DNA from: Nitrospira sp.
Lineage (GTDB): Bacteria > Nitrospirota > Thermodesulfovibrionia > UBA6902
Assembly (NCBI GenBank): GCA_016784355.1
Contig: JADHUV010000009.1
Span: 8,746-72,745, forward strand
DNA length: 64,000 nt
Direction of reading: 5' to 3'
Shown here: positions 5,687-59,821 of the stretch, piece by piece
Layout: every line of letters begins with the position of its first letter
How positions within the stretch are numbered: the first letter of the stretch is position 1
Program-made: the position numbers and the translations under genes
Notes under the pieces: model-generated
Seen by the model: only the letters and a program-made list of their open reading frames with translations
What the model was told of the DNA's origin: nothing
Databases searched by the model: none

Positions 5687-6052
5687 AGTAGTATGATGAT
5701 GAGATGGTAATTTTTTATAGTGATTATGGTATTATACACAAGTGTCCCCGAGTATTTCTTATTCAGGTGTGTATGCGATAATTGATATTTCAGTCACCTC
5801 TATCCCTTTTGTCCATGATCGCATCTTTTATCAACGCAGTTTCCTGCAATTAAAGTTGTCAGGGAATGTGCCGTATATATAGCATAGAAATGAAGCTTTA
5901 GTTAGAAGTATTCGGTTGGGGGGCCTTATCCCTTTTATTTTAGTATAAATTTTTTATATAATAAGGATTACTTGTTTTAAATTTCGAGAATCAGTATATA
6001 TCTGATTGTTAAATATATAAAAGAACGAAAAATAATTTCGATAGAGGTATAG

Positions 6053-8443
6053 ATGGCAAAAGGCTGTTGTGATACAGGAAGAGATGAAAGAATAAAGCAG
6101 TATAGCTACAGTGAGTGGGAGATCGATGATCCCAATGTCAGGAAGTTCAGTCCTGAAGATATTCTTTTTACTCCTGAACATATTGTCAAACGCAAAAAGG
6201 GCGTGTCACTTCTGATTGATCCGAAGTCGCCTAACTGGATAAGTATGAACCAGACAGGTGCTGAAATTATCAAGCTGTGTGATGGTAAACATACTATTTC
6301 TGAGATTCAGGATGCGATATGCAAGAAATACGCTGTCAGCAATAAAAAGCAGGTAAAGGAAGAGGTCTCTCAGTTTCTCAGTGCTGCCGGACTGCTTGAA
6401 TTTGTCTCAGATATAAAATTTGAAAGACCGGCATACCCCGGCAGAAGCAAGGTAATAGCTCCCAAAAAACTCGATGAGCTGTGGATGTACTACACCATGG
6501 CATGTAACCTCAAGTGTAAGCACTGTCTGGTGGATGCGGGCAAGGTTTTGCGCAAAGAGCTTAGCACCGAGGAGTTTATGAAGGTGGTGGACGAAGGGGT
6601 CAAGCTTGGAGTTAAGAGGTTTTATATAACCGGCGGTGAGCCCTTTATAAAAGAAGGGATCTTTGATCTTATTAAATACATCACAAAAACAAAGAAGCGG
6701 GAGCTTATAGTTCTTACCAATGCGACCCTCTTTGATGATGACAAGATAGCTAAGCTGGCAAAGCTTGCCGGCCCGAGACTTCTACTTCAGGTGAGTCTCG
6801 ATGGGCACACTGCGGCCATGCATGACGAACTTCGCGGCAAGGGAAGTTTTGATAAGGCAGTAGACGGGATTAAAAAGCTGATCAGTATTGGCATAACACC
6901 GATTATCTCTACGGCGATCAGCAAGCTGAATGAAAAGGACATTTCAAAGACTTCCAAGTATCTCTCAGGGCTTGGCATTCAGGAGCACAATGTGCTTTGG
7001 ATGCATACGAAGGGTCGAGGTGCAAGTAATATAAGTGATCTTTATATACCCTCTGATGATGTTGCAAAGGCAATGAAAAGAATCAAGAGTGCTTATAAAG
7101 AGCAGGAGATGATCCTGGATAATGTAGAGTCGCTGAAAGTCAGGGTCAGGACTAAAAGAGGCAGAAAGAATGACCTCTGCAATAACTGTTATGAAAAGGT
7201 ATGCGTTAATTCCGACGGGAATGTATATCCCTGTGCATCTCTGAACGGAGATAAGGCGTTTAATGCCGGCTCAGTCAGGAAGAAATCCCTTGAGGACATA
7301 TGGCTTAATTCAAAGGTCATGGATACGGGCCGTAAACTCAGCGTACAGGATAAGGAGGAATGCAGTAAGTGCTACCTTGAATATTTCTGCGGCGGAGGAT
7401 GTACAGCTCATAGTTACTATGCAAGTGAAGTGGATACGGGCAAGGGTTCTATAACTGCGGTTGACCCTTACTGCTCAACCTATAAATCACTTTTTGATGA
7501 CATTATATGGGAGCTCGCTTCTGAAGGTGTCAGGACGTCTAATGATAAGACGGGATATACTGTTCCCCTTGTATATAATGCGATGGATACAAAGCTTCCC
7601 GGACATTTTGGCAAGGGTCTTAAGAAGATTGATAAAAACTTTGATGTCGGCTGTTATCACTGCTCATGTGTTTTATCTGTTGATGTTGAGGGCGATGATG
7701 AGATCTGTAAGCCCGAGATTAAAGGGAATGTTACAAAGACAGTGAAAAAGAAATTTTCAGATGCTGCTTATAACCCTGTTGCGGATTACTATTGTCCTAC
7801 CGGTTATGATCCTAAAGATCTTGCTCATATACCTAAAGAGGTAATGGATGTATCTTACGGCTGCGGAAATCCTGCTGCCCTTGCGGATATAGGCGAGGCA
7901 GAGACCATTGTCGACCTTGGTGCGGGTGGTGGCATTGACTGCTTTATAGCTGCAAAAAAACTTGGACCAAAAGGCAAGGTCATTGGTATAGATCTGACTG
8001 AGGAAATGGTTGTTCAGGCTAGTAAGAGCGCTAAGAAGGTTGCAAAGGTTCTGGGCTATGATGTAGTGGAGTTCAGAGCCGGAAACATAATGGAGCTGCC
8101 GGTTGAGGATAACTCTGTTGATTTAGTTATATCGAACTGCGTTATAAATCTCACGGAAGACAAGTGGCAGGCACTGAGAGAGATATATCGTATTCTTAAA
8201 CCAGGCGGCAGGTTCTATATTTCTGATATAGTTTCGGATAAGCCGGTTCCTGGATACCTGAAGCGTGATAAAGAACTCTGGAATGCATGTCTTTCAGGGG
8301 CACTTACAGATAAGAATTTCAAGGCAACGGCAGATGATGCCGGCTTTAGCAAGGTAACACTGACAAACGGGTATCTTTATAAAAAGGTTGAATTTATCAA
8401 TTTTTACTCGGTAACATTAAAAGGTATCAAACCTAAAAAGTAA
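6053..8443 (+). CDS. Tri-domain fusion: PqqD/RRE-like domain, radical SAM with a SPASM auxiliary-cluster domain, and a C-terminal ArsM/AS3MT-type SAM methyltransferase
   Basis: PqqD-like segment ISMNQTGAEIIKLCDGKHTISEIQDAICKKY. rSAM CxxxCxxC in CNLKCKHC, plus GGEPF. SPASM Cys block CSKCYLEYFCGGGCTAHSY. Methyltransferase motif I VDLGAGGGID, with YGCGNP, SNCVINL and LWNACLSGAL. SD AGAGG upstream of the ATG. Confidence 0.85.
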   Translation: MAKGCCDTGRDERIKQYSYSEWEIDDPNVRKFSPEDILFTPEHIVKRKKGVSLLIDPKSPNWISMNQTGAEIIKLCDGKHTISEIQDAICKKYAVSNKKQVKEEVSQFLSAAGLLEFVSDIKFERPAYPGRSKVIAPKKLDELWMYYTMACNLKCKHCLVDAGKVLRKELSTEEFMKVVDEGVKLGVKRFYITGGEPFIKEGIFDLIKYITKTKKRELIVLTNATLFDDDKIAKLAKLAGPRLLLQVSLDGHTAAMHDELRGKGSFDKAVDGIKKLISIGITPIISTAISKLNEKDISKTSKYLSGLGIQEHNVLWMHTKGRGASNISDLYIPSDDVAKAMKRIKSAYKEQEMILDNVESLKVRVRTKRGRKNDLCNNCYEKVCVNSDGNVYPCASLNGDKAFNAGSVRKKSLEDIWLNSKVMDTGRKLSVQDKEECSKCYLEYFCGGGCTAHSYYASEVDTGKGSITAVDPYCSTYKSLFDDIIWELASEGVRTSNDKTGYTVPLVYNAMDTKLPGHFGKGLKKIDKNFDVGCYHCSCVLSVDVEGDDEICKPEIKGNVTKTVKKKFSDAAYNPVADYYCPTGYDPKDLAHIPKEVMDVSYGCGNPAALADIGEAETIVDLGAGGGIDCFIAAKKLGPKGKVIGIDLTEEMVVQASKSAKKVAKVLGYDVVEFRAGNIMELPVEDNSVDLVISNCVINLTEDKWQALREIYRILKPGGRFYISDIVSDKPVPGYLKRDKELWNACLSGALTDKNFKATADDAGFSKVTLTNGYLYKKVEFINFYSVTLKGIKPKK

Positions 8444-8507
8444 GTTGCGGATATAAGTCCTGAGGGTAATCCCAGGGCAATGGTTCGCAAGAAAAGAGGT
8501 CGGATTT

Positions 8508-9992
8508 ATGAAAGTTACATTAGTCAATGCGCAGGTACTGGATGGCAACAATGTTGTTCCGCCATTGGGGCTTCTGTATGTGGCCGGCTCGCTGGAAGCT
8601 GCCGGACATGAGGTACAGATCTTTGATGCGGATCCCGAACACGAAACAACCATGCTTCAGCAGATCAAGGACTTTAATCCGGGACTGATAGGCATAAGCT
8701 TTCTGACGGTAGCATATGAACGTGCGGAGGGTCTTTGTAAGGCTCTGAAAAAAGTTCTTCCGGATGTAATGTATTGCGCAGGAGGCGTGCATGCCACGGT
8801 CAAGCCTGAAGAAACATTGAAGGCGTTTGACCTTGATTTGATAATTATGGGTGAAGGCGAGCACACCATGGTAGATTTATGTAACAGGCTCTCAAAGAAT
8901 GAGAGTATTGAGGATGCCCCTGGATTGCTTTATCAAAAAGACGGCGCGATTGTCAGGACTGAACCAAGAGAGCTTATTCAGGATCTTGACTCCATACCAT
9001 TTCCTGCCAGACACCTTATTGATATGACCCCGTATCTGAAGCCCCCGGGAATTATCAGGGGTTATGCTGATAAGAATCAGACAACAATAGTGACCAGTCG
9101 AGGCTGTCCTTTTAAGTGTATTTATTGCGGAAGTCATAATATATTCGGCAGAAAGACCAGGCGGCGCTCATATCAGAACGTTGTTGATGAGATTGAACAT
9201 CTTGCTAAAAATTTCGGTATCAGAGGTATATATTATTGTGATGACACCTTTACCCTTAGTTCCAGGTGGGTTAAGGAATACTGTAATGAATTGAAGAAGA
9301 GAAAACTTGATATTAAGTGGGGCTGTCAGTCGAGGGTTGATCAGACAGACAGGGCACTTATGATAGAGATGAAGTCCTCAGGTCTCGTGCAGCTTGATTT
9401 CGGTGTTGAGAGTGGTTCTGAAAAGATACTTAAGGTACTTGGTAAGGGCGGAGCAGGTGACAGGACATCCCAGATCAAGGAATCCTTCAAGCTTTGCAAG
9501 GAACTTGATATTAGGACTCTTGCTACGTTTATCATTGGTAATCCGACAGAGACAAAGGAGGATATCGATGAGAGCTTTGCGGTAGCAAAAGAAATACAGG
9601 CGGATTATACCGCATTTTATTTCCTGACTCCTTATCCGGGTACGGACATTTATGATCAGGCTATTGCAAATGGATGGCTTGATCCGAACCTGCCTTTCTC
9701 TGAGATATGGGCACACAGGCAGCCGGAACTGCCTCTGATGGCTATTACATTTAGTCAGGAAGATTTAAGGGATATCAGACGTAATCTGCAGAATCATTTC
9801 TTCAGAAAAAATTATCTCGTAAGATCAGGGAATATTAGTTTTTATTCCATCCTGTCTACGATATTTTTCAGGAATCCGGGAATATTCCTGACGGCCTTTG
9901 GGAAATTTCTCCGGACCCGTAGGATGGATTACATAGTTGAGACTTTGAATGCTGAGTACTGGAGAATTAAAAAGTATGAGGGTGCAGGTTAA
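8508..9992 (+). CDS. B12-binding-domain radical SAM protein (class B rSAM)
   Basis: N-terminal Rossmann-like B12-binding region (PPLGLLYVAGSLEAAGHEV). rSAM cluster motif SRGCPFKCIYCGS. Lies 64 nt downstream of the fusion gene on the same strand. Confidence 0.85.
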   Translation: MKVTLVNAQVLDGNNVVPPLGLLYVAGSLEAAGHEVQIFDADPEHETTMLQQIKDFNPGLIGISFLTVAYERAEGLCKALKKVLPDVMYCAGGVHATVKPEETLKAFDLDLIIMGEGEHTMVDLCNRLSKNESIEDAPGLLYQKDGAIVRTEPRELIQDLDSIPFPARHLIDMTPYLKPPGIIRGYADKNQTTIVTSRGCPFKCIYCGSHNIFGRKTRRRSYQNVVDEIEHLAKNFGIRGIYYCDDTFTLSSRWVKEYCNELKKRKLDIKWGCQSRVDQTDRALMIEMKSSGLVQLDFGVESGSEKILKVLGKGGAGDRTSQIKESFKLCKELDIRTLATFIIGNPTETKEDIDESFAVAKEIQADYTAFYFLTPYPGTDIYDQAIANGWLDPNLPFSEIWAHRQPELPLMAITFSQEDLRDIRRNLQNHFFRKNYLVRSGNISFYSILSTIFFRNPGIFLTAFGKFLRTRRMDYIVETLNAEYWRIKKYEGAG

Positions 9993-17563: not shown

Positions 17564-18337
17564 CTATATCCGCTTGATCTCATGTGCCATGACCCATGCG
17601 AGCTTATTATCATCCCTTTTGATCTTAAACCAGTCTTTCTTTTCAGATATGATCCTGACTTTCATTCCCCTATATAGGGTGTAATGGGATGTAGCGCTTT
17701 TAAATGGCTCGAATCTCGCCTCAGCGATCTCTGTGATAACCACCGCCTCGCTGTTGAGCAGATTAATACGGTTCGTTATAGCATATAGCAGGGGCAGAAT
17801 AAGTATAAATACAAGAAAAATGAGAAATAGTGAGCGCTTCCTGAAGGCAAATATATACATACGTGCCAGAAATGCAGCAGCGGCCGCAAGCAGCAGAAAA
17901 GAGACTGATAGCGTTAGTTCGTTCAGGGAGAGAAAGCTGAAGAGGTTGAGGAAATGTCTGGACAGGGGGACCTTGTGCTCAGAGATATCAAACGTCAGAC
18001 CGCTTTTTGCATAGTTATAGTTTGAGTTAAGGTCGCTGTCTCTGGGCATAAGTCGTAATGCCCTTTCATAATACAATATGGCCATGCCCGGCTCGTTTAT
18101 TTTAAAATAGCTGTTGCCCATGTTGTAATAGATATTACCGCTCTCGTGGCCGGTCTGTTCCAAAGAGTCATACGCTTTTATAGCCTCAGTATAATTACCT
18201 TCTTCATAATGTGTGTTTCCCTTGTAAAAGAGGTAAGCGGGGTCGCTGCCGGCTTCTTGACAATTGCCGGTATCATATATGAAAACGGACATCATTATGA
18301 AAAAAAGCAGGATGTATTTATCAATATGTTTAAACAT
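17564..18337 (-). CDS. BatE-like protein (TPR repeats, TM segments, C-terminal SH3-like domain)
   Basis: TPR motifs (YYNMGNSYFK.., AILYYERAL) and a C-terminal SH3b-like block KDWFKIKRDDNKLAWV. It is the last gene of the Bat-type operon. Confidence 0.6.
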   Translation of the reverse strand: MFKHIDKYILLFFIMMSVFIYDTGNCQEAGSDPAYLFYKGNTHYEEGNYTEAIKAYDSLEQTGHESGNIYYNMGNSYFKINEPGMAILYYERALRLMPRDSDLNSNYNYAKSGLTFDISEHKVPLSRHFLNLFSFLSLNELTLSVSFLLLAAAAAFLARMYIFAFRKRSLFLIFLVFILILPLLYAITNRINLLNSEAVVITEIAEARFEPFKSATSHYTLYRGMKVRIISEKKDWFKIKRDDNKLAWVMAHEIKRI

Positions 18338-20136
18338 TATTTCAGCCTTTCCAATCTCTCAATCACTTTTTTTAACTCTGTCAGGGACTTTCTCATTGTC
18401 TCCCCTGTTATGGTCGCAGAAGCGTATCTGGCCAAATCACATTGATCCAGTATTGCCTGCAGTTTCTGCATGGTTTCAGTATCAACATCTCTGCCTTGCA
18501 GGATTACTGGTGCTGACTCTGCAGTGATGCCAGCAGATACTATATTAAAACGGTCGCTGATATAGTCCTTTATTATGCTGAAAACAGAGTCATGAAATTC
18601 CGCCGTCATGTTTTTATCAATGAATTTGGCAGCCTCCTTTATGCTAGCCGCAGCCTGATCCGGTGCCTTGAGTCTCCGGGCATATCCGGTGTTATTTTTG
18701 AGGCGCTCAATCTTTTTCCGGTAGAAATAAAATGCGGCCAGGGCGATTAAGGCAGTCAGGTGAATACCGAGATATAGAGGGCTGTTATAAAGGTATTGTC
18801 CGGTTTTCCTTATATCTCCCGGTGACTCCTTGATATAGATAATATCGCGACCGATAGAGTCTTCTGCTGTGCGCTGTACAGTATCCTTCTGGGAATCTAC
18901 TATAACAGCCCTCTTACTGCCCACGGTTTTCGCAACATTTACAGAGAAAGGGCCTCTGACGATTGTCTCGTATTGTGAAGATGCAGGGTTGAAAAAGCTG
19001 AACCTGGCCTCAGGCAGGGCGGTAACTTCATGCGACAGCGGTATAAAAATCTGTTCAAATATTTTCGTGTTTCCGTCCTGCGTGACCTGTGGATCGTAGA
19101 CTTTTATATTGTCCGGTATTTTAATCAGGGGTGAAGTTACGGAAGTAGAATTACCGTTTCCGCTTATGCTGATTTTCATAGTAATCGGATCTCCTGTATT
19201 GACCGAGGCAGGGGAGATGCCTGCCTCCATGCTGAACCTGCCTACTGCGCCGTCGAATCCCTCGGGTCGGTCCTTTTCAGGGAGAGGCAGGACAGATATA
19301 GAGATCCTTTCCGTTGTCAGTTCAATCGGTTCTGCTTCTGACCGCCCGAAAAGATCATTCATGGGATCATTGCCGAAAAAATCATCCAGAGGTGAGCGTC
19401 CGCGCCCCTGGCGTTTTACTATTATACTTGCGCCAAGAACAGCCGGGCCAAGATCAAGAGTGCCTGTCTTGGTAGCATAAAACGTAGTATTGAACTCAAC
19501 TACATCATAGATAACCCCATTTTTTCTCTCCTGGTACTGCCTGGGCTTTCCGAGCTCTTCTACTGAAAAGCCTTCGTATTTAAGCTCCGGATATCTTATA
19601 TTGCGTACACTCAGACCATTTACATAAAGTTTTATTTTCAGGGGGATTTCTTCGTTAATGTAGAGCTCTGTCTTTTCCGGTTCCATAACAAGAAAGATGC
19701 GGTCCTGTGCCGCCTGGTTAGTGCTGCCGCTGCCAGGTGCTGCCAAGCTGGAGACCTCTACTTTCAGGGCATTTGAGGTAAAGGTATCGTTATTGTGTTT
19801 AAAGGAGAAGGGCCCTATAGCAAAGATACCTGTTTTCAGTGCCACTAGCCTGTACATATAGGTTATTGAGGATGTCATTTTACCGTTTACTATTGACATC
19901 TCAGTTGAGGGACCGAGGTATCGGGAGCTAAAACCCTCTATGTCCGGAAGCTCTATCACCGGGACATCGCGAATCTTGTCAAATTTAAAATTGAGCTGTA
20001 TTGCATCTCCCGTCTGAATTATATTTCTGTTTGCGCTTATCTGAAATGCCACATCCTCAGAAAAGGCTGTTGCAGATATCAAAAATATATATAGAAAGAT
20101 AAATATCGTTTTTTTATATTCAGCTATTAATTTCAT
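18337..20136 (-). CDS. BatD-like oxygen-tolerance protein
   Basis: Signal peptide, a large beta-rich ectodomain and a single TM helix near residue 460. Its position between the BatC-like and BatE-like genes fits. Confidence 0.6.
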   Translation of the reverse strand: MKLIAEYKKTIFIFLYIFLISATAFSEDVAFQISANRNIIQTGDAIQLNFKFDKIRDVPVIELPDIEGFSSRYLGPSTEMSIVNGKMTSSITYMYRLVALKTGIFAIGPFSFKHNNDTFTSNALKVEVSSLAAPGSGSTNQAAQDRIFLVMEPEKTELYINEEIPLKIKLYVNGLSVRNIRYPELKYEGFSVEELGKPRQYQERKNGVIYDVVEFNTTFYATKTGTLDLGPAVLGASIIVKRQGRGRSPLDDFFGNDPMNDLFGRSEAEPIELTTERISISVLPLPEKDRPEGFDGAVGRFSMEAGISPASVNTGDPITMKISISGNGNSTSVTSPLIKIPDNIKVYDPQVTQDGNTKIFEQIFIPLSHEVTALPEARFSFFNPASSQYETIVRGPFSVNVAKTVGSKRAVIVDSQKDTVQRTAEDSIGRDIIYIKESPGDIRKTGQYLYNSPLYLGIHLTALIALAAFYFYRKKIERLKNNTGYARRLKAPDQAAASIKEAAKFIDKNMTAEFHDSVFSIIKDYISDRFNIVSAGITAESAPVILQGRDVDTETMQKLQAILDQCDLARYASATITGETMRKSLTELKKVIERLERLK

Positions 20137-20171
20137 CTTACGCCCTGATTCATTTTGAGATAGTCACTGTC

Positions 20172-21014
20172 TTACCAGTCCTTTGCAACTTCCGGATAAA
20201 TTGCAGAGGTATTTTTTTCCAGGTTTCTATCCTCTTCTTTGCCAAACGCTTCAAGCAGTGCCTTGGCCTCATCCGGAGTCATTTGGTCAATTTCTTCTGC
20301 CTGCTCCCCGCTGCCCGTATCTTCTTTCCCGGCCTCATCTCTCTTGGCTGATTTATCATCGGCCTTTTCCTGCTGCTGAGAATCTTCGGAAGGATCCTTC
20401 TTCTCCTCCTCCCCGTTATCCCTTTGTTTTTCCTGATCGGCAGATTCCTGTTGTTCTTTTTCCTGATCTTTCTTGTCGGAATCTTTCTGCTCGTCATCTT
20501 GTGGCGGTTGGCTTTTCAGCTTTTCCATGAGCAGTTTCAACTCCTGCTCTACCAGCTCATAATTATACATGGCATCGGTGTTTTTCTGGTTAAGTTCGAT
20601 AGAGCGTTTGTAATAATCCAGTGCCTCGCCGTAAAATTCAAGAGCGGCCTTTGGGTCGCTTTCGGCAAGGCTGCTTCCGAGATTATATTTTGCATTGGCT
20701 ATGTTGTACGAGGCTTGCTCCTCAACGGATATGTTTTCTGTATTCAGGGCAAGGGTAAAGGCCTCGATGGATTCTTTTAGCTGACCTTTTCTATACAGGG
20801 CTGTCCCAAGGTTGAAATTTATGATCTCCGGGTCAGATTCTTTTATTCGGGCAGACTCGTACATGCTTATGGCTTGATCATAGTTTTCATTCTTGTAATA
20901 ATCATTGCCTCTTTTTACATCACTTGCGGCAGAGGCCGCGAGGCAGTTAGCAGGCGCAAAGGCTGCCAGTATAATGAAAAGCAGTGCGAATATTAAATTA
21001 AAGATCATGATCAT
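20172..21014 (-). CDS. BatC-like TPR protein with an acidic low-complexity C-terminus
   Basis: Signal/TM segment, TPR repeats and a long D/E/K/Q-rich tail. Confidence 0.6.
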   Translation of the reverse strand: MIMIFNLIFALLFIILAAFAPANCLAASAASDVKRGNDYYKNENYDQAISMYESARIKESDPEIINFNLGTALYRKGQLKESIEAFTLALNTENISVEEQASYNIANAKYNLGSSLAESDPKAALEFYGEALDYYKRSIELNQKNTDAMYNYELVEQELKLLMEKLKSQPPQDDEQKDSDKKDQEKEQQESADQEKQRDNGEEEKKDPSEDSQQQEKADDKSAKRDEAGKEDTGSGEQAEEIDQMTPDEAKALLEAFGKEEDRNLEKNTSAIYPEVAKDW

Positions 21015-21021
21015 TTTTCAT

Positions 21022-22047
21022 TTAAAAGTTTAGCCTGTGCTGCTGATCTGCAGGCCCCCTCTCGCTTATAAACAATTCCAGGCATAGCAGTATTAAGGCA
21101 AAAATAAGCAGGATCTGGAAGCGGTCCTCATATTGTTTGGCCATTTTATTTTCAATATCTCTCTTTTCTATCTTAGAGAGTTTTTCATCATATAGAAGCT
21201 CCAGTCCGAATTCTGTTGAGGTGGCCCGGATATAACTGCCCCCGGTCTTCAGCGCGATGCTTTTAAGCGTAGCCTCATCAAGACGGGTTTTTACTACATT
21301 TCCGCTGCGGTCTTTAAGGAATGTCTGTTGCCCCTGACTGTTAATGATAGGGATAAGTTCTCCGTCTGCAGAGCCTATGCCTATCGTATATATCTTTAAG
21401 CCATCTGCACCGGCCTTCTCAGCCATCTCGATCGGCTTGCCCCCATGGTCTTCCCCGTCCGTTATAATGATAAGGATTTTATTTTCCTTGATGCCGCCTT
21501 CGTAACTTTTCATCGCTGTCTCTATAGCACTTGTTATAGAAGTACCTCCTTTTGGGATGGTTCCGATATTCAGGTCGTCCAATGACAACATGAACCCATT
21601 GTAGTCTGCGGTAAGAGGCGCCTGCAGAAAGGAACTTCCGGCAAAGGCAATCAGGCCTATTCGGTCGCCTCTGAGTCGTTTTATGAAATCTTTAACGGCA
21701 AGTTTTGAGCGCTCCATCCTGCTGGGCTTTACATCTGTTGCCAGCATGCTTTTTGAGGTATCAATGGCTATTATTATATCGAGACCGCTTCTTTTGACCT
21801 CACGCCACTGAAAGCCCCACTGCGGACGGGCAAGGGCTATTATCATAATCACAATGGCGCACACCGTAAGTGATATTTTTATTGCCTGTCTCCGCTCGCT
21901 TAATGATATGATGAGATGCCGCAGCAGTGAGCTTTCAGCAAATCTCTGAAGATCTGCGGCTCTTTTTCTACGGGCCCAGAATAAAAAAGCCAGCAGTGCT
22001 GCAATGCCCCATATGAAATGCATGGAATCAGGGCTGGCGAATTTCAT
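21022..22047 (-). CDS. VWA-domain protein (BatB-like)
   Basis: N-terminal TM helices and the MIDAS motif IIAIDTSKSM. Confidence 0.8.
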   Translation of the reverse strand: MKFASPDSMHFIWGIAALLAFLFWARRKRAADLQRFAESSLLRHLIISLSERRQAIKISLTVCAIVIMIIALARPQWGFQWREVKRSGLDIIIAIDTSKSMLATDVKPSRMERSKLAVKDFIKRLRGDRIGLIAFAGSSFLQAPLTADYNGFMLSLDDLNIGTIPKGGTSITSAIETAMKSYEGGIKENKILIIITDGEDHGGKPIEMAEKAGADGLKIYTIGIGSADGELIPIINSQGQQTFLKDRSGNVVKTRLDEATLKSIALKTGGSYIRATSTEFGLELLYDEKLSKIEKRDIENKMAKQYEDRFQILLIFALILLCLELFISERGPADQQHRLNF

Positions 22048-22075
22048 CGTTGGTCTCCCGGGCAGGTAGTGTGCA

Positions 22076-23071
22076 TTATGGCAATCTCCGTAACACAGTA
22101 TTTTTTAATATCATTTCCGCAATGAGCAGCAGTATTCCGGGAATAAGGAACAAGTGAAATATTTCACCGTAAACAGCATAGCCCTCTTCCTCGATATCTG
22201 TTTTTTCCATTTCATCTATCTCTTTGTATATCTCTCTCAGGGAATCTGTATCTGTCGCGCGAAAGTATCGGCCATTGGTCTTGTCGGCCACCTGCATGAG
22301 GATTTCTTCATCTACATCGATCCTCACATTTTTGTATATTGTCCTGCCGAAGGCACTCTTTACGGGGTAGGGTGCAAGGCCTCTGGTTCCGGCTCCTATA
22401 GTATAGACCTTTATGTTTAATGCATTGGCAGCCCCTGCCGCTGTGAGAGGTGAGATCCTGCCGGAATTATTTCTGCCGTCTGTCAACAGGATAACAACTT
22501 TGCTTTTTGCGGTGGAATCTTTGAGCCGGTTCAGGGCCGAACTCAGGCCGGAACCTATGGCGGTACCATCCTCAATCATCCCGGTTTCTATACGCTGCAG
22601 GTTTTGTATGAGCCAACTGTAATCAAGTGTCAGCGGAGCGACAGTATATGCCCTGGATGCAAATGCAACTATGCCTATGCGGTCACTGTAGCGATTGCCA
22701 ATGAATTCCTTTACCACTTCTTTTACAGCGCTCAGCCGGTTGGTCCGTCTGCCCTCAAGCTTGAAGTCTTCGGCCAGCATGCTTGTAGAGGTATCTATGG
22801 CCAGCACTATATCAATACCCTCAGCCTCTATCTTGGCATCCTCCAGCATTTCCTGCGGGCGGGCAAGAGCGATAACTATCAGCAGCAGGGCAAGTATACG
22901 TACGACTATAAGGCTTTTAGCCGTTCTGGTTCTCAGGGTTTGTCCCAGACCTTTAAACATCTTCCCGGAGGGAAAGAGAAGCGCCGGGTGATTTGTCTTT
23001 GTCCTGCTGTATATGCTCAGCGCAAGTACGACAGGTAGAAATAGCAGAAGCCAGGGATCATTGAAATGCAT
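22076..23071 (-). CDS. VWA-domain protein (BatA-like)
   Basis: N-terminal TM helices, MIDAS motif VLAIDTSTSM and a C-terminal TM helix. Confidence 0.8.
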   Translation of the reverse strand: MHFNDPWLLLFLPVVLALSIYSRTKTNHPALLFPSGKMFKGLGQTLRTRTAKSLIVVRILALLLIVIALARPQEMLEDAKIEAEGIDIVLAIDTSTSMLAEDFKLEGRRTNRLSAVKEVVKEFIGNRYSDRIGIVAFASRAYTVAPLTLDYSWLIQNLQRIETGMIEDGTAIGSGLSSALNRLKDSTAKSKVVILLTDGRNNSGRISPLTAAGAANALNIKVYTIGAGTRGLAPYPVKSAFGRTIYKNVRIDVDEEILMQVADKTNGRYFRATDTDSLREIYKEIDEMEKTDIEEEGYAVYGEIFHLFLIPGILLLIAEMILKNTVLRRLP

Positions 23072-23880
23072 CAGTCCTCACCCCTGCCTTTTGCACCCGT
23101 CTCCACAACGAGATGTTCAGCCGAGTCATAACTGCTGCGAATCTCGTCTTCCCCGGGCTGATGTTTAGCAAACTTAACCATATCGCATTGAACAAGAAAC
23201 TCACTCAGCAGTCCCTTATGTGCAGGCTTAAGCTGGTGGGCATTTTTCAGGTGAACAAGAAACTCTTCAGTCGTCATTTCAGGGGCCTTGAAATAAAAAC
23301 GATCCTCCAGGTAGTGCCTGACTATATCTGAAAGCTCGACATAAAACTCCTGCACCCTGCCGCTAGTGATATAGTCTTTTTCCATTAAAACTTTTAAGGA
23401 TTCCAGAGCTGTTTCATGCGGGGGAGGCGGTACGATTATCGGCTCTCCTGCATATTTTTTCTTTCTCAGCATGAAATAAATGATCAGGGCAATGATAAGT
23501 GCTGCAATAGCAAGGATAATATAAATATAACTGAGATCCCGTAAGGAAAGAGGCGGTTTGATATCTTTCAGCAGGGGTGTACCCTCAGTTGCCTGTAGCA
23601 GGCTGGTAACTGTTATATCGATATCAGGCAGGGTAGTTTTCTGCCATGTCTCGCTGTCTTTTTTGCGGAACCTGACGGTATGGCCTTTTAAGGTGTATGC
23701 GGCCGGCTTGAAAGTGCTCATCATATACCAGGCACGATGGGTCTTGGTGAACAGACCGTTGACCGAACTGCCGGATTTATTTATCTCAAGTCCTGCATCC
23801 TGATCTTCAGGCTCCTGAAATCTGATCTCATAACTTCTCGGGGCCGTGACCTCTATTGTATAAGTGATGAGCTCGCCCAC
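23071..23880 (-). CDS. Membrane protein of the Bat/MoxR operon (BatD-N-like ectodomain plus one TM helix); the true N-terminus is probably further upstream
   Basis: Central TM helix IYIILAIAALIIALIIYFML. The same frame is open for 44 more codons upstream, and these encode a signal-peptide-like stretch (see findings). Confidence 0.5.
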   Translation of the reverse strand: MGELITYTIEVTAPRSYEIRFQEPEDQDAGLEINKSGSSVNGLFTKTHRAWYMMSTFKPAAYTLKGHTVRFRKKDSETWQKTTLPDIDITVTSLLQATEGTPLLKDIKPPLSLRDLSYIYIILAIAALIIALIIYFMLRKKKYAGEPIIVPPPPHETALESLKVLMEKDYITSGRVQEFYVELSDIVRHYLEDRFYFKAPEMTTEEFLVHLKNAHQLKPAHKGLLSEFLVQCDMVKFAKHQPGEDEIRSSYDSAEHLVVETGAKGRGED

Positions 23881-23995
23881 ATTGGCGGAGTGTTTATCGA
23901 CGGTTGCTGTTATCGCAGGTACGGCAGGCTCTTCGGCGTAGAGGTTACCGATAAAAATAAGGAGCAGACAGAGTATCAGGGGCGCAGTTTTTATC

Positions 23996-24871
23996 TCACA
24001 CCCGCCTTTCCCTCATTCTGAAAAAAGAGTAGAGGGCACGTGTGTAGGGTTCATCCGTTTTCACAGCAATATGGTCTACATTGACTGAACGGAAGAGCGC
24101 CTGTCGCTCCTGAACCATCCTGGCCGCATTTGCCTCAAACCGGGTTCTGACGGCCTTATTTGAAGTATCGACAAGAAATCGTTTTCCTGATTCGGCATCT
24201 TCAAGCTCGGTTAAGCCCATATTCGGCAGGCTCAATTCCCTTGGATCGGTCACCGAAACAGCTATAAGGTCATGTCGTTTATTGGCGATTGAGAGGGCTT
24301 TTTTAATATCCTCGGTATAAAAGTCAGAGATTATAAAACATATGGATTTTCTGCTGGTAGTACGATTGAGATACTCCAGTGCCCCGGCTATGTCAGTGCC
24401 GGTACCTGTCGGCCTGAAATACAGCGCTTCCCTGATAATTCTTAATACATGACGCAGTCCTTTTTTTGGAGGAATAAATTGCTCTATGCGGTCTGTAAAG
24501 GATATCAGTCCTACCCTGTCGTTGTTTTTTATAGCGGACATGGCAAGAACTGAGCAGAGTTCTGCCGCCAGTCGGTTTTTCAGTCTATTTACGGTTCCGA
24601 ATGCTGACGATGCTGAGATATCAAGCAGGAGCATTATGGTCAGTTCCCTTTCCTCCATAAACTTTTTGATAAAGGGGTGACCGGTTCTAGCTGTTACGTT
24701 CCAGTCAATAGAGCGAATATCATCGCCGGGCTGGTATTCTCTGACCTCTTCAAACTCCATTCCATGTCCTTTAAACACGCTATGGTAATGGCCGGCAAAG
24801 ACATCTGTGGCCATACGGGAGGTAGTGATCTGAATCCGTCTTATGTTCTTCAGAATTTCTTTGGGTATCAT
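23996..24871 (-). CDS. DUF58-family protein (MoxR-associated, VWA-like)
   Basis: Conserved block EFEEVREYQPGDDIRSIDWNVTAR. It sits directly downstream of the MoxR ATPase gene. Confidence 0.8.
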   Translation of the reverse strand: MIPKEILKNIRRIQITTSRMATDVFAGHYHSVFKGHGMEFEEVREYQPGDDIRSIDWNVTARTGHPFIKKFMEERELTIMLLLDISASSAFGTVNRLKNRLAAELCSVLAMSAIKNNDRVGLISFTDRIEQFIPPKKGLRHVLRIIREALYFRPTGTGTDIAGALEYLNRTTSRKSICFIISDFYTEDIKKALSIANKRHDLIAVSVTDPRELSLPNMGLTELEDAESGKRFLVDTSNKAVRTRFEANAARMVQERQALFRSVNVDHIAVKTDEPYTRALYSFFRMRERRV

Positions 24872-24902
24872 ATTATATAGCGGAACCTGTCATAACAATG
24901 AA

Positions 24903-25898
24903 CTATGGAACTTCCACTTCATCAAAAATCTTTTTAATTATGTCATCAGAGGTTTTCTCTTCAGCCTCGGCCTCATAGCTGATAATTACCCTGTGCCGCA
25001 GGACATCGGGACCGATTGTTTTTATGTCCTGAGGTGTTACATAGCCGCGTCCCTGAATAAAGGCATAGGCCTTGGCCGCGAGGTTCAGGTTAATGGTTGC
25101 CCTTGTTGAGGCACCGTAGGATATGAGGCCTGCAAGATCCTTGAGGTTATATTTAAGGGGATCTCTTGTTGCAAAGACTATATCTAGGATGTACTTCTCA
25201 ATTTTTTCATCCATATATATCTCATTTACTACCTGTCTTGCCCTTTTTATATCATCTGGAGAAATGACCGGCAGGACCTCATTGGTTTTGTCTGTAAAGG
25301 CCATGCGCTTCATGATCTCATGCTCCTCCTCCATGGTCGGATAGGTGACGTTCAGTTTAAGCATGAAACGGTCAACCTGTGCCTCTGGAAGCGGATAGGT
25401 TCCTTCCTGTTCTATGGGATTCTGGGTCGCCAGAACTAAAAAGGGATCATCAAGCGGAAAGGTGTTTTCCCCAATGGTGACCTGGCGCTCCTGCATGGCC
25501 TCAAGCAGTGCGCTCTGAACCTTTGCGGGTGCTCGGTTAATCTCATCTGCAAGTATGATATTGGCAAAGATAGGCCCCTTTTTAGTGGTAAATGTACCGT
25601 CCTTGGGGTTGTATATGAGTGTACCGAGCAGATCAGCCGGAAGCAGATCAGGGGTGAACTGAAGCCTCTGAAAACTGGTATTTAAAGCCCCGGCCAGGGT
25701 TTTTACTGAGAGGGTCTTGGCCAGACCAGGCACTCCTTCTATCAGGACATGGCCGTTTGCCAGTACTGCGACCAGGAGTCTTTCTATAAGATACTTCTGT
25801 CCTACTATTACTTTTTCCATCTCTGAGACAAGTGCATGTACAAAGGAACTCTCCTGACGCACCTTCTCGTTTATTGCAAGTATTCCGGCATCAGCCAT
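24903..25898 (-). CDS. MoxR-family AAA+ ATPase
   Basis: Walker A LIEGVPGLAKT, Walker B ILADEINRA and the LATQNPIEQEGTYPLPEAQVDRF block. Confidence 0.9.
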   Translation of the reverse strand: MADAGILAINEKVRQESSFVHALVSEMEKVIVGQKYLIERLLVAVLANGHVLIEGVPGLAKTLSVKTLAGALNTSFQRLQFTPDLLPADLLGTLIYNPKDGTFTTKKGPIFANIILADEINRAPAKVQSALLEAMQERQVTIGENTFPLDDPFLVLATQNPIEQEGTYPLPEAQVDRFMLKLNVTYPTMEEEHEIMKRMAFTDKTNEVLPVISPDDIKRARQVVNEIYMDEKIEKYILDIVFATRDPLKYNLKDLAGLISYGASTRATINLNLAAKAYAFIQGRGYVTPQDIKTIGPDVLRHRVIISYEAEAEEKTSDDIIKKIFDEVEVP

Positions 25899-52000: not shown

Positions 52001-52104
52001 AGCTTCGGATATACAGGATGGCGGTTGAGAGACTCTTCGGTGTGTCCGGGGTGAAAACCTTTTTGGTCTTTACCGGCAGCGGAGATGTACTGGAGGTGAA
52101 ATAG
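49015..52104 (+). CDS. AddA-like UvrD/Rep-family helicase with a C-terminal nuclease domain
   Basis: Walker A APAGSGKT, VDEFQDTN, the YRS motif, TVHASKGLEF, and the C-terminal GRIDRV ... IYDYKT nuclease motif. Confidence 0.8.
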   Translation: MSDYLDTGKSIMISAPAGSGKTEKLARRYISLLGSGVPVERILAVTFTDKAAAEMKQRILRILGREDKVLFASLRERLPMMRVCTIHSFCGSLLRRFAFDATVDPGYTVSDAVEAEMIWEGVLYDVLMQAESDPQQKVFFQHILSEKGFRGLHYFRDTMNGLYARMPFSLEAGLCEISDEISESDIEELRLWEGVSSTLDWYEGYITGASPGLTSTMEGMFLTSVKEPRKRAVAELKHVPDYGAWAELMHRFWRDAQTKVNRVRAAEMLDIFHKCLSRYTAFKKSRSILDFSDLEYLACRMLMDNPEWANILYAFDENTDHLLVDEFQDTNSFQWAIIDRLTEEWRAGMGSKREGGIRPTAFFVGDVKQSIYFFRGANVEIFHGAREKMEKWLADEFNYIEVKENYRSRPAIIDFTNRVFSRIMKTGDSGAPWESRYTEFVACKPGSGEAGSVEIIILPEEKIPVAEAKKNEGDLIARRIKGLAGTHMVADSASGRQRPCTYSDIAILLSKRTHLSGYEQALRKHNIPFVAVKGVGFYQEYEIGLLRSLIYFLTNPSDDYSLYVLLKGPFFVMREKTVLGLVNIQGGSLYDKICSADGLEAAGILQKWRAWLKTRYLSEIIGTAMVETGAWRYFHTPQQRANIIKFISILEGLESDGKSMIMIRDFLEKTESKNQEPKANVSVRGMEAVKIMTVHASKGLEFPIVILPGLEEAFSARAGESLVFEREGSFFYKYESEASLRKLDEDYILQAAREMEEQKRLFYVAATRAEEALVLVGRWTERDNNCMAYLRKGLGLQLNDGGVTVSDDFEGLSILSEEDVAMLYSHSTVSGESARPEKTIAVLASPVSVRTPWVSVTAEQEITNALDSDSGGLGDLIHRLLEKVSLGLLQEKDILSDAGIMLELTGYFSELKEKKLCIISNEIKVMKASGAWEEIVVPRKDSFAELPFVLRSGSVVYSGRIDRVIRSGSTYNIYDYKTFPVNKADLKEVSKAYSEQLRIYRMAVERLFGVSGVKTFLVFTGSGDVLEVK

Positions 52105-52865
52105 TGGGAAGACCGCTTGGGCAGCATTTTCTTTTTGATAAAAATATACTGAAAAAGATAATCAGGTATTCGGGAATAACAAAAAAAGATACGGTTGTTG
52201 AGATCGGGCCTGGACTCGGTCCGCTGACAGCCCTGCTTGCTGAAAGTGCGGGGAGGGTGGTGGCGCTGGAAAAGGACCGGAAGCTCATAGACCGGCTTTC
52301 TGAAAATCTTAAGGGGTATGACAATGTCGAGATCGTAAGCACGGATGCCCTGAAGTATCCATACGAAACACTTGGTGATAGTTTCAGGGTGGTTGCAAAT
52401 ATACCCTATTACATTACCACTCCGATAATCTTTAATCTGCTTGAATACCGGGCCTCGCTTAAAAGTATGACCCTGCTGATGCAGAAGGAGGTAGGGAGGC
52501 GAATTGTTGCAGTGCCGCCCGGCCGTGAGTACGGTGTACTCTCGATTTCTACGCAGCTATATACCCGTCCTGAGCTTAAGTTTACGGTCTCCAGGAAGGC
52601 CTTCTCTCCGCCGCCGGCAGTTGATTCTGCTGTTGTTCATTTCGATGTTTCGCCGGTGCCCTTGTATGATGTGGGGGATGCACAGTTGTTTCGCTCTATA
52701 GTGAAGGCCTGTTTTTCTCAGCGCAGAAAAACCATTCTCAATGGTCTGAAGGCCTTTGAGGGAATCAGGGAGGCACTGGATGCAGCTGGTATTGATCCTG
52801 TTGTCAGGCCGGAAACGCTCTCCATAGACAAGTTTGCAGATCTTGCCCGATGTCTGCGTAAGTAA
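52104..52865 (+). CDS. rsmA: 16S rRNA (adenine1518/1519-N6)-dimethyltransferase
   Basis: LGQHFL start, EIGPGLGPLT SAM motif and the NIPYYITTPI block. Its GTG start overlaps the AddA stop by 1 nt. Confidence 0.9.
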   Translation: MGRPLGQHFLFDKNILKKIIRYSGITKKDTVVEIGPGLGPLTALLAESAGRVVALEKDRKLIDRLSENLKGYDNVEIVSTDALKYPYETLGDSFRVVANIPYYITTPIIFNLLEYRASLKSMTLLMQKEVGRRIVAVPPGREYGVLSISTQLYTRPELKFTVSRKAFSPPPAVDSAVVHFDVSPVPLYDVGDAQLFRSIVKACFSQRRKTILNGLKAFEGIREALDAAGIDPVVRPETLSIDKFADLARCLRK

Positions 52866-53103
52866 ATTTTTTTTACAGCCTCTCGAGAACACTTTTTGTG
52901 TATAATTGTCATAGCAAATTCAATGCCTGATTACTGTAAATATGTTTTACAGTAGGCGTTTTATGTCCCTGTAACCTACGCTTTTATTGGTTTTGCGAGA
53001 TATATTTATGTGTAAATATCCTTTACAATCAAGCAGGAACCCCCTCTGTGTGCTGTTTTTGAAACTTTTTTAACACCCCCTAAAGTAAATTTCTTTTACA
53101 GCC
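52860..53103. promoter_or_regulatory. Array of four GTAAA-N5-TTTAC(A) inverted repeats spaced 73-76 bp apart, upstream of the S8 protease gene
   Basis: Copies are centred at 52869, 52943, 53019 and 53092. Copy 2 extends to TACTGTAAA-tatgt-TTTACAGTA. Copies 1 and 4 are 20/21 identical over AAGTAAATTT[T/C]TTTTACAGCC. Confidence 0.6.
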
Positions 53104-53177
53104 GAAGAAGAGTTACTAAGAGCCTGAAAGCCGGAAAGGCCTCAAGGCAAATGAGATGAAATTAGGGAGGTAGTCCT

Positions 53178-55367
53178 GTGTATAATCGAATGGTTCGTGT
53201 ACTTTCTTGTATGGCAGTTGTGCTGATACTGGCCGGTTATTTTTCATTCGCTTATGCAGAGTATGTGCCGGGTGAGGTTCTGGTTAAGTACAGGGACGGC
53301 AGCATGATATCTGAGAGTACGCTTTCCGAGGATGCCGGAATACAGCAGAAAAAGGATTTCCGTGCGATCCGGCTGCATCACATGGCGCTTCCGGAAAATA
53401 TGTCAGTGCAAGAGGCAATAGCAATTTATCAGCAGGATCCCAATGTTGAGTATGCAGAGCCCAATTATATTGTTGAAATAAATACTATTCCGGATGATAC
53501 TGATTTTACAGGTTTGTGGGGCATGCACAATGAAGGACAGACTGGGGGAGCAGTAGATGCGGATATTGATGCCCCTGAGGCCTGGGAACTTACTGTCGGA
53601 TCCGAAGATGTCATTGTGGCGGTAGTTGATACAGGGGTGGTTTATACACATCCGGACCTTAGTGCAAATATATGGACGAATTCCGGAGAAACCAGCTGCG
53701 TCGATGGTATTGACAATGATGGTAACGGCTATATTGATGATTGTAATGGCTGGGATTTTGTCGGCAGTGATAATGATCCTACAGACTATAATGGACATGG
53801 CACGCATGTAGCCGGAACTATTGCTGCGGTAGGAAATAATGCAGACGGCGTTAGCGGTGTGATGTGGAGAGCAAAGATTATGCCTCTTAGATTCCTGGGT
53901 GTAAATGGCACAGGCACTACCGCAGATGCTGTATCAGCGATACTTTATGCCTCTGCCAATGGCGCTCATGTTATAAACAATAGCTGGGGCGGCGGTGGAT
54001 ATAGTCAGGCATTGAAGGATGCTATAGATGCATCAGATACGGTGGTGGTATGCGCTGCCGGCAATAGTGGCAGTAATGTTGAGAGCACTCCATTTTATCC
54101 CGCCAGTTACACGAGTTCCAATATTATCTCTGTTGCCGCTACAGACCACAATGATCAATTGGCTGCTTTTTCCAATTATGGCATTACGTCCGTAGATATA
54201 GCCGCCCCCGGCGCTGGTATATACAGCACTGTACCGGTAATTGGCTATGGGGCACCGGTTACTGTTTACAGTCAACAGAGTTTTGAGGGTGCCTCCGGTG
54301 AACTTCCGCTGCTGGGCTGGAACCGGGGCGGAGCAAATTCCTCCTGGTCAGTTACGAGCGGTACCGGTACAGATGGAAGTAACAGCCTTGAGGACAGTCC
54401 CGGGGCTGACTATAGTAACAGCACTGGCTCCTGGGCAGGTTATATGACCCCGATAACCTCGGTGAAGGACAATATATACACTCTAACATTCAGCTGGAAG
54501 GGTGAGCTGGAAAATTATTTTGATTATCTGGATATTAACTATTCTCTGGACGGAAGCTCCTGGGACTGGGTTGATTACCGTACGGGCAGCACCAGTGGAG
54601 ATTTTGAGTCAGACTCCTCTGAGGATCTTACAAGCATTGCGGAGTCTTATGATGAATTTTATTTTGGCTTCGGTATTACTGCTGATAGCTCCGTAACCAG
54701 CGAGGGTGTGAGCATTGATGATATTGAATTAACTAGAACTCCTCTGCGGATTAGCAGTTACGGCTATTCAAGTTATAACGGGACATCCATGGCCGCTCCT
54801 CATGTGGCCGGGGTTGCAGGGCTTGTCAAGGCGCTGCATCCGGAATTTTCCAATCTGCAGATTCGGAGTGCGATAATAAACAGCGTAGATGTAAAAGCGG
54901 ATCTGGTGGGAAGTATCGCAACCGGAGGCAGACTGAATGCCTATGGGGCCCTTGTTGAAACGAATATCGATGTTATCAGTGATGGCAGCGGTGACAGTGA
55001 AACTGTTGTAGTGCCGGGAAGCAACTCAGGTATAGTTGAGGCAGCAGCCGGCGGTGGCGGCGGCGGTGGCGGCTGTTTTATCGCAACTGCGGCATACGGA
55101 AGTTTTATGCACCCGTATGTCAGGGATCTCAGAGAGTTCAGGGATGATTATTTATTGAGCAATTATCCGGGCAGGCTTTTTGTATATATGTATTACAAGT
55201 ACTCACCGCCTGTAGCGAATATTATAAAAGACAGCGAAGGCCTGCGGTTTGCATCAAGGATATTGCTGGCTCCAGTTGTTGCAGCAGTTACGATGCCTTA
55301 CCATGTACTGACATTAATGCTTGCAGGGGGTTTCATCTATATGCTCCGCCGCCGCAGAGTCCGGTAG
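53178..55367 (+). CDS. Secreted subtilisin-like (S8) serine protease with an inserted beta-rich module and a Gly8-CFIATAAYGS C-terminal anchor domain
   Basis: SD GGGAGG plus a GTG start. Signal peptide, then an I9-like propeptide. Catalytic D (VAVVDTGV), H (HGTHVAG) and S (GTSMAAPHVAG). An insert of ~190 aa lies before the Ser motif. The C-terminus is GGGGGGGGCFIATAAYGS ... hydrophobic helix ... RRRRVR. Confidence 0.9.
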   Translation: MYNRMVRVLSCMAVVLILAGYFSFAYAEYVPGEVLVKYRDGSMISESTLSEDAGIQQKKDFRAIRLHHMALPENMSVQEAIAIYQQDPNVEYAEPNYIVEINTIPDDTDFTGLWGMHNEGQTGGAVDADIDAPEAWELTVGSEDVIVAVVDTGVVYTHPDLSANIWTNSGETSCVDGIDNDGNGYIDDCNGWDFVGSDNDPTDYNGHGTHVAGTIAAVGNNADGVSGVMWRAKIMPLRFLGVNGTGTTADAVSAILYASANGAHVINNSWGGGGYSQALKDAIDASDTVVVCAAGNSGSNVESTPFYPASYTSSNIISVAATDHNDQLAAFSNYGITSVDIAAPGAGIYSTVPVIGYGAPVTVYSQQSFEGASGELPLLGWNRGGANSSWSVTSGTGTDGSNSLEDSPGADYSNSTGSWAGYMTPITSVKDNIYTLTFSWKGELENYFDYLDINYSLDGSSWDWVDYRTGSTSGDFESDSSEDLTSIAESYDEFYFGFGITADSSVTSEGVSIDDIELTRTPLRISSYGYSSYNGTSMAAPHVAGVAGLVKALHPEFSNLQIRSAIINSVDVKADLVGSIATGGRLNAYGALVETNIDVISDGSGDSETVVVPGSNSGIVEAAAGGGGGGGGCFIATAAYGSFMHPYVRDLREFRDDYLLSNYPGRLFVYMYYKYSPPVANIIKDSEGLRFASRILLAPVVAAVTMPYHVLTLMLAGGFIYMLRRRRVR

Positions 55368-59735: not shown

Positions 59736-59821
59736 TGGCGGAGGAGGTAGGATTCGAACCCACGGATCTTTCGATCAACGGTTTTCAAGACCGCCGCCAT
59801 CGACCACTCGGCCACTCCTCC
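59736..59821 (-). tRNA. tRNA-Ser (anticodon UGA), CCA encoded
   Basis: GGAGGAG acceptor pairs with CTCCTCC. D-arm GCCGAGTGGTC.... Anticodon stem GCGGT/ACCGT with loop CTTGAAA. Long variable arm. T-arm GTGGG-TTCGAAT-CCTAC. 86 nt. Confidence 0.9.

Follow-up and report, generated by a model that had tools for sequence, protein, structure and literature searches.

Why should the DNA between rsmA and the gene for a secreted S8 protease in a Nitrospira sp. carry four perfect copies of one palindrome at nearly equal distances? The question arose from a first-pass annotation of a 64,000-nucleotide stretch of contig JADHUV010000009.1 (hereafter, the window), which had read the copies as an array of protein binding sites. 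A motif search of the full 64 kb agreed with every statement that annotation had made about the sequence of the four phased copies. The motif, GTAAANNNNNTTTAC (GTAAA-N5-TTTAC), has four matches, at 52862-52876, 52936-52950, 53012-53026, and 53085-53099, and no others in the window. All four lie between rsmA and the protease gene, within 240 bp. That interpretation is broadly sensible, and it was borne out in part. An array of binding sites remains the best reading of this sequence, and we consider it about evenly balanced between being right and being wrong.

The four copies differ in length and in setting. Copy 1 (AAGTAAATTTTTTTTACAGCC, 52860-52880) overlaps the end of rsmA, whose stop codon (52863-52865) lies inside the palindrome. 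Copy 2 (TACTGTAAATATGTTTTACAGTA, 52932-52954) is the longest palindrome of the four, with arms of 9 bp on either side of a 5-bp center, and copy 3 (TGTAAATATCCTTTACA) occupies 53011-53027. Copy 4 (AAGTAAATTTCTTTTACAGCC, 53083-53103) has its center 86 bp from the protease GTG at 53178. Successive palindromes start at intervals of 74, 76, and 73 bp. Copies 1 and 4 are identical at 20 of 21 positions (52860-52880 versus 53083-53103), and this identity, the overlap of copy 1 with the rsmA stop codon, and the distance of copy 4 from the GTG were all as first described. Copies 2 and 3 have the half-sites TGTAAA/TTTACA. Common to all four copies is GTAAATnTnnTTTACA, with the nonsymmetric bases of GTAAATnT included, and the conserved unit comes to 15 to 17 nt with 76 to 94% identity between copies. 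The palindrome centers differ (TTTTT, TATGT, TATCC, and TTTCT), as do the flanks and the 53 to 59 bp between sites, while the dyad arms are invariant.

The array is far beyond chance, and the result is statistically robust. Whole-window shuffles gave an expectation of 0.04 GTAAA-N5-TTTAC matches per window, and no shuffle gave four. When the local 328 bp (37% GC) were shuffled with dinucleotides preserved, any identical 5-N5-5 palindrome at four copies was seen in 1 of 20,000 shuffles. These figures bear out the earlier judgment that the array was very unlikely by chance. Allowing one mismatch added two matches, at 31498 and 50218, both in coding DNA and at chance level. A position weight matrix made from the four sites scored them at 17 to 19 bits, with the next best position in the window at 13. 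The description of the copies as conserved palindromes in unrelated DNA, as opposed to a tandem repeat, also stood. Tandem Repeats Finder returned nothing, and no periodic similarity at 74 to 76 bp was present outside the cores, which rejects a tandem repeat or degenerate duplication; weak periodic signals appeared solely at offsets of 97 and 150. The window sequence is also present in several ENA assemblies, ERZ24794654 among them, and a contig of the same genome in NCBI assembly GCA_014382155.1 supplied ~9.5 kb of adjoining DNA. A dispersed repeat of the repetitive extragenic palindromic (REP) or miniature inverted-repeat transposable element (MITE) type was rejected, as neither the window nor the adjoining 9.5 kb holds another copy or any position above 13 bits.

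Comparison with related loci placed the array relative to a likely promoter. The comparison set comprised 165 loci with protease relatives, found by genome and metagenome scans, and 7 more relative loci found by exact-protein look-up. Orthologous leaders share a bipartite element, cTAAAG-N14/15-(G/A)CCGAAA(T/A/G), which lies 36 to 100 nt ahead of the start codon. This element was identified in 11 of 18 upstream regions, representing ~8 independent lineages, where 0.12 regions would be expected by chance; the carriers are the window (53079-53108) and loci L001, L002, L004, L083-L085, L094, L166, L167, and L169. The boxes are conserved and the spacer sequence between them varies among orthologues, which is the signature of a promoter. 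In the window, the -35-like box is CCTAAAG (53079-53085) and the -10-like box is GCCGAAGA (53101-53108), both on the forward strand. CCTAAAG-N15-GCCGAAGA is the single such match in the 64 kb, although a lone match is no more than chance would give (0.5 expected).

The two boxes resemble those read by sigma-28 (FliA). The sigma-28 promoter of Pseudomonas aeruginosa fliC has TCTAAAG at -35 and GCCGATAA at -10, 14 bp apart, and the sigma-28 spacer shows no conservation of sequence or length (PMC12784957). Taking that promoter as the consensus, the window element agrees with it in having TAAAG and a GCCGATAA-like box ~14 to 15 bp apart. From this consensus match and the conservation among orthologues, we infer that the element is a sigma-28 promoter, for which a start 7 to 8 nt after the -10 box is expected, with a start site near 53115-53117, and it suggests that the protease belongs to a motility regulon. 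The only sigma-70 candidate that a promoter scanner found beside the copies, TTGAAA-16-TAAAGT, was rejected; it uses the conserved TAAAG as its -10 box and has no conserved -35 box in relatives. In L001 (~5884-5919) and L166 (~1439-1474), the -10-like GCCGAAAT ends 8 nt before the ATG with no ribosome-binding site visible, and the protease mRNA may be leaderless in these two loci. In the window, a ribosome-binding site, GGGAGG (53165-53170, forward strand), precedes the GTG by 7 nt.

With the promoter-like element at 53079-53108, the likely start site lies downstream of copies 1 to 3, and copy 4 falls in the promoter spacer. Relative to the predicted start, the centers of copies 1 to 4 lie at approximately -247, -173, -97, and -24. 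The 15-bp core of copy 4 sits within the spacer and overlaps only the final G of the -35 box. This changes how the region before the protease gene is to be described. The first-pass annotation had called it a 312-bp leader, and the intergenic region is indeed 312 bp (52866-53177). However, given the conserved promoter-like element at 53081-53108, most of it is probably upstream promoter DNA and not transcribed leader. A second sample (locus L082) has a single difference in this region, G to A at 53133, in the predicted 5' untranslated region and outside every site; all four palindromes are the same in both samples, and the comparison is therefore uninformative about the array. The 10-mer TGTGTATAAT occurs twice in the region, at 52897-52906, where it holds a perfect TATAAT (52901-52906) between copies 1 and 2, and at 53177-53186, where it spans the protease GTG.

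Taken together, we believe, with confidence that stands near the midpoint, that the four palindromes form an operator array for one dimeric DNA-binding protein, with copy 4 occluding the promoter and the three other copies serving as auxiliary sites that add cooperativity or looping. In this model, a dimeric protein on copy 4 would fill the spacer between TAAAG and GCCGAAGA and exclude sigma-28 RNA polymerase. Copies 1 to 3, at ~-247, -173, and -97, would increase occupancy locally, whether by cooperative contacts, small loops, or wrapping. The outcome would be tight, switch-like repression of a secreted protease whose expression otherwise follows the motility regulon. Copy 4 has the placement of a proximal operator overlapping a core promoter, insofar as the promoter is the predicted one. 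Repression loops are functional in vivo at operator spacings of 59.5 to 92.5 bp (PMC3001091), and the regular 73- to 76-bp spacing within this range counts for an operator array. The sequence shows the sites, their statistics, their restriction to this lineage, and where they lie relative to the conserved promoter-like element; protein binding, repression, and cooperation among the sites, like the sigma-28 identity of the element, are what we infer.

Several findings weigh against this reading. The motif GTAAA-N5-TTTAC is absent upstream of the protease in all 165 plus 7 relative loci. The rsmA-then-protease order is kept in many relatives. By its protease homologues, the organism belongs in Nitrospirota, with Thermodesulfovibrionia-like metagenome-assembled genomes. 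The distance from the rsmA stop codon to the promoter-like element in relatives ranges from an overlap to ~115 bp, with no palindrome. In L083-L085, the spacer is merely a near-palindrome, GTAAAcacatcTTTcTAC. As the array is missing from orthologous loci, it is lineage-specific and, by sequence comparison, its perfect dyad and the three copies farther upstream arose in this lineage. Conservation upstream of orthologous proteases had been named as the test that could refute a binding-site array, and the motif is not conserved in the loci examined. This absence leaves function in this species standing but removes comparative evidence of selection. The closest nonidentical protease homologue is only ~65% identical. 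(In L083, rsmA was called as two open reading frames [ORFs] of 88 and 176 amino acids at 3161-3932, a frameshift or an assembly error.)

The remaining points on that side concern the array and its genome. The other condition named as refuting was a motif at background frequency in the intergenic DNA of the genome. Neither the motif nor the matrix found a second target in ~74 kb (the window plus the adjoining DNA); the motif is absent elsewhere in this DNA, and hence no regulon is visible there. No candidate regulator gene stands beside the array or is obvious in the window, as judged from Pfam scans of 45 ORFs and from small ORFs in the gaps. The invariance of the arms is partly circular as evidence since the copies were found via their arms, and the -10-like GCCGAAGA is more degenerate than the -10 boxes of relatives. 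Helical phasing is approximate. The placement of all sites on the same DNA face, which had been concluded from the spacings, would be exact only at 10.5 bp per turn (7.0 to 7.2 turns); the spacings come to 6.6 to 6.9 turns at ~11 bp per turn, the value measured for loops in vivo (PMC3001091).

The lineage specificity of the array also bears on a different account, that it is a neutral by-product of DNA rearrangement. An ancestral promoter segment (AAGTAAATTTnTTTTACAGCC) would have been copied when the DNA between rsmA and the promoter gained ~224 bp by insertion or expansion, leaving palindromes that are functionless now. Without 52860-53083 (copy 1 and the DNA up to copy 4, ~224 bp), the intergenic region would shrink to 88 bp and resemble those of relatives, with rsmA leading directly into the promoter as in L002, L094, and L083-L085, and the extra DNA is bracketed by copies 1 and 4, direct repeats with 20 of 21 identical bases. 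The near-palindrome of relatives already has the left arm and a portion of the right one, the nonsymmetric bases of GTAAATnT shared by all four copies suggest common descent, and the array is conserved in no relative. However, copies 2 and 3, with the same perfect arms and the same spacing in otherwise unrelated DNA, are left unexplained, and we know of no mechanism that copies merely 15 to 21 bp to sites ~74 bp apart. All 40 arm positions are intact while the flanks have fully diverged, and neither another copy nor mobile-element similarity was found. On balance, we regard a neutral relic as an unlikely origin for the array. Sites for an activator that would stimulate the promoter from upstream, of the Fis/NtrC type with an HTH_8 domain or a spacer-binding MerR-like protein, are a poorer prospect still. 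NtrC and Fis sites have the same 6-N5-6, G-N13-C geometry as the copies here, three of the four copies lie at typical upstream-activator distances, and a protein with GAF, sigma-54-activator, and HTH_8 domains, the single HTH_8 protein found in the ~74 kb, is encoded at 4151-5686. These points are set against the lack of a sigma-54 -24/-12 element facing the protease, the site centered at ~-24 in the spacer, which for most families is a repressor position, and a spacer of the same length as in relatives, which argues against the overlong spacer of MerR-type promoters. The missing -24/-12 element likewise rejects a sigma-54 promoter with enhancer sites. A sigma-54 -24/-12-like sequence, AGGCATTGAATTTGCT (GG-N10-GC, 8 of 11 positions), is present on the minus strand at 52913-52928 and is directed into the 3' end of rsmA; sequences that fit this well turn up ~1 per kb, and it is probably a chance match. 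The sites might instead act in RNA, within a long leader or in transcripts reading through from rsmA, where the hairpins would bind a protein or mark points of processing. Stems of 5 to 9 bp with a 5-nt loop can form at each site, and a long leader could in principle begin from the perfect TATAAT at 52901-52906, although no -35 box lies at a usable distance from it and the conserved promoter-like element is downstream of copies 1 to 3. These stems are weak, being rich in A-U pairs, 8 of 100 shuffles fold equally well, and no Rfam family matched at gathering or permissive thresholds. The lack of an Rfam match and a fold z-score of only -1.5 leave little for an RNA explanation, which we consider very improbable, and are counted in favor of the operator array.

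Palindromes of this kind are also abundant in phages, which raises the question of whether the sites are iterons. We scanned viral contigs for two GTAAA-N5-TTTAC sites 45 to 70 nt apart and obtained at least 120 loci (L170-L289) with 26 to 62% GC. Among the matches listed, 108 of 120 loci have three to six clustered copies, mostly 20 to 45 bp apart, compared with only 16 of 109 and 34 of 62 loci with at least three copies for two control palindromes. In 91 of the 120, the array lies inside an ORF. Ten such ORFs were sampled: seven match PHROG replication-initiation families (most of them O-like), one matches a primase-helicase, and two match nothing. Pfam HTH_36 is present in 8 of the 10, one of which also has Phage_rep_O, and one large group of loci corresponds to the gene annotated as replication protein O in Acinetobacter baumannii prophages. 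Each phage array keeps its own conserved center (e.g., L174 1025-1105, L194 8663-8764, and L171 3021-3119). In a few AT-rich phages, intergenic TGTAAA-N5-TTTACA sites at a distance of 70 to 72 bp adjoin a primase-helicase gene and an A/T-rich stretch. These origin-like regions (L235 10572-10823, L232 11390-11605, L249 11620-11827, and L273 502-743) contain TGTAAA(C/G) half-sites phased at 11 bp in both orientations, palindromes 70 to 72 and 122 to 133 bp apart, and a long A/T stretch. GTAAA-N5-TTTAC is thus a common iteron of winged-helix phage initiators; it points to one protein class that can read the motif, as a lead and not as proof.

Could the Nitrospirota array then be a set of iteron-type sites for a phage- or plasmid-style initiator (O-like, with winged-helix HTH_36), as a relic origin or as chromosomal sites of a protein encoded elsewhere? 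The motif and its number are right, as at least three copies of GTAAA-N5-TTTAC are what O-like phage iterons have. The control palindromes, however, also make phage arrays, and therefore sharing the motif is weak evidence. Phage arrays are mostly spaced at 20 to 45 bp with the center repeated, whereas the spacing here is 73 to 76 bp and the centers differ. No initiator, helicase, or other mobile-element gene is near the array, which sits within a conserved rsmA-protease order, and BLAST searches against phage records and the fetched loci found nothing similar to it. The cumulative GC skew keeps rising across the array with no turning point, which also rejects a chromosomal replication origin. 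With no replication genes nearby, differing centers, and conserved gene order, the phage link does not make this array an origin, and we hold iteron-type sites to be improbable. A combination of the phage link with the operator array can be imagined, in which a domesticated winged-helix protein related to phage O-type initiators, as a stack or oligomer, would wrap or loop the promoter of the motility-linked protease at a four-site array that this species built from its own sigma-28 promoter spacer, with about one DNA gyre per site. This is a speculative variant to which we attach little credence.

Other classes of repeat and site were tried and rejected. The LexA/CRP resemblance that had been noted for copy 2 did not survive a comparison of geometry. 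E. coli-type LexA sites are CTGT-N8-ACAG over 20 bp and CRP/FNR sites are 5-N6-5 over 16 bp; here, CTGT-N11-ACAG is present in copy 2 only, and the sites are 5/6-N5-5/6 over 15 to 17 bp. CRISPR arrays combine nearly identical repeats, 23 nt or longer, with unique spacers and usually have cas genes nearby, whereas the conserved unit here is 15 to 17 nt and no cas domains were found in the window. A tRNA or Rfam RNA at the array was rejected, as the single match in the window is a tRNA at 59739, to which a permissive scan adds one sub-threshold ATPC match. One register of the sites reads (S/C)K(F/Y)xLQ, but a short peptide repeat was rejected since the 74/76/73 spacing shifts the frame and stop codons lie between the sites.

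The neighborhood is that of an ordinary chromosome. On the forward strand, rsmA/ksgA (52104-52865) encodes a 16S rRNA dimethyladenosine transferase and ends within copy 1, and the protease gene (53178-55367) encodes a secreted S8 subtilase of 729 amino acids with an N-terminal prodomain of the fervidolysin type. Upstream of rsmA are genes for an AddAB-like helicase-nuclease pair and an HhH-GPD glycosylase, and mnmG lies downstream of the protease. The remaining window encodes multiheme cytochromes, PAS histidine kinases, Rho, SerRS, and others. There are no flagellar genes in the window. In the same genome past window position 64000, locus L461 (7312-13803) encodes a GAF hybrid histidine kinase, a CheR-CheB fusion, and a response-regulator kinase; this set looks like chemotaxis-like signaling and is no proof of flagella. 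At 6053-9992, a radical-SAM/SPASM protein has a PqqD-like domain at its N terminus and is fused to a SAM methyltransferase, and a B12-binding radical-SAM protein comes next. This pair looks like a peptide-modification system of the RiPP (ribosomally synthesized and posttranslationally modified peptide) type, and the gene for the GAF/sigma-54 activator (4151-5686) is divergent from it. A complete BatA-BatD/MoxR/DUF58/VWA operon of the aerotolerance type occupies 17564-25898 on the minus strand.

Almost nothing is known of transcription control in Thermodesulfovibrionia and related Nitrospirota. If our model is right, a conserved sigma-28-type promoter before a secreted subtilase would link proteolysis to motility, as in Bacillus epr, and the four-site operator array could be used as bait for its regulator. 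With its even spacing of ~7 turns, the array would then lend itself to tests of cooperative looping or wrapping on a non-sigma-70 promoter. If the palindromes are a neutral relic, the array is of local interest only. The analysis had two by-products, a sigma-28-type promoter conserved in this protease clade and the motif link to phage O-type iterons.

Among known systems, the phage lambda-O-like iterons (HTH_36/Phage_rep_O) share the motif, the arm spacing, and arrays of three to six copies, but they lie in or beside an initiator gene, whereas the sites here are at a chromosomal promoter without nearby replication genes. TyrR boxes of Enterobacteria have the same half-sites, and as here there are multiple boxes. 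The TyrR box is TGTAAA-N6-TTTACA with an invariant G and C 14 bp apart, and promoters carry multiple boxes that act cooperatively, with one overlapping the core promoter for repression (PMC4374768). All four sites in the window are G-N13-C around an N5 center, while TyrR requires G-N14-C, which rejects them as TyrR boxes; in addition, TyrR boxes are adjacent or ~50 bp apart as opposed to 74 bp, and TyrR is gammaproteobacterial.

For the protease, there is a precedent, counted in favor of the operator array, in epr of Bacillus subtilis, an S8 protease gene in the SigD regulon that is also controlled by SinR, ScoC, and DegU, and whose product degrades secreted FlgM (PMC8767453). An extracellular S8 subtilase, a flagellar sigma factor, and a repressor overlay are common to both, the overlay here being predicted. 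The two differ in phylum and in operator sequences, which are unrelated, and the sigma-28 assignment here comes from consensus match and conservation only. For the arrangement of sites, the comparison is with lac O1/O2/O3, gal OE/OI, and deo, which likewise have a promoter-proximal palindromic operator and auxiliary copies tens of base pairs away, and operator spacings of 60 to 90 bp support looping in vivo (PMC3001091). In contrast to those systems, the window has four sites at a nearly equal spacing of ~74 bp, placed upstream or in the spacer as putative operators, at a predicted promoter of sigma-28 and not sigma-70 type. The array is best filed as an uncharacterized new example of a multi-operator promoter region.

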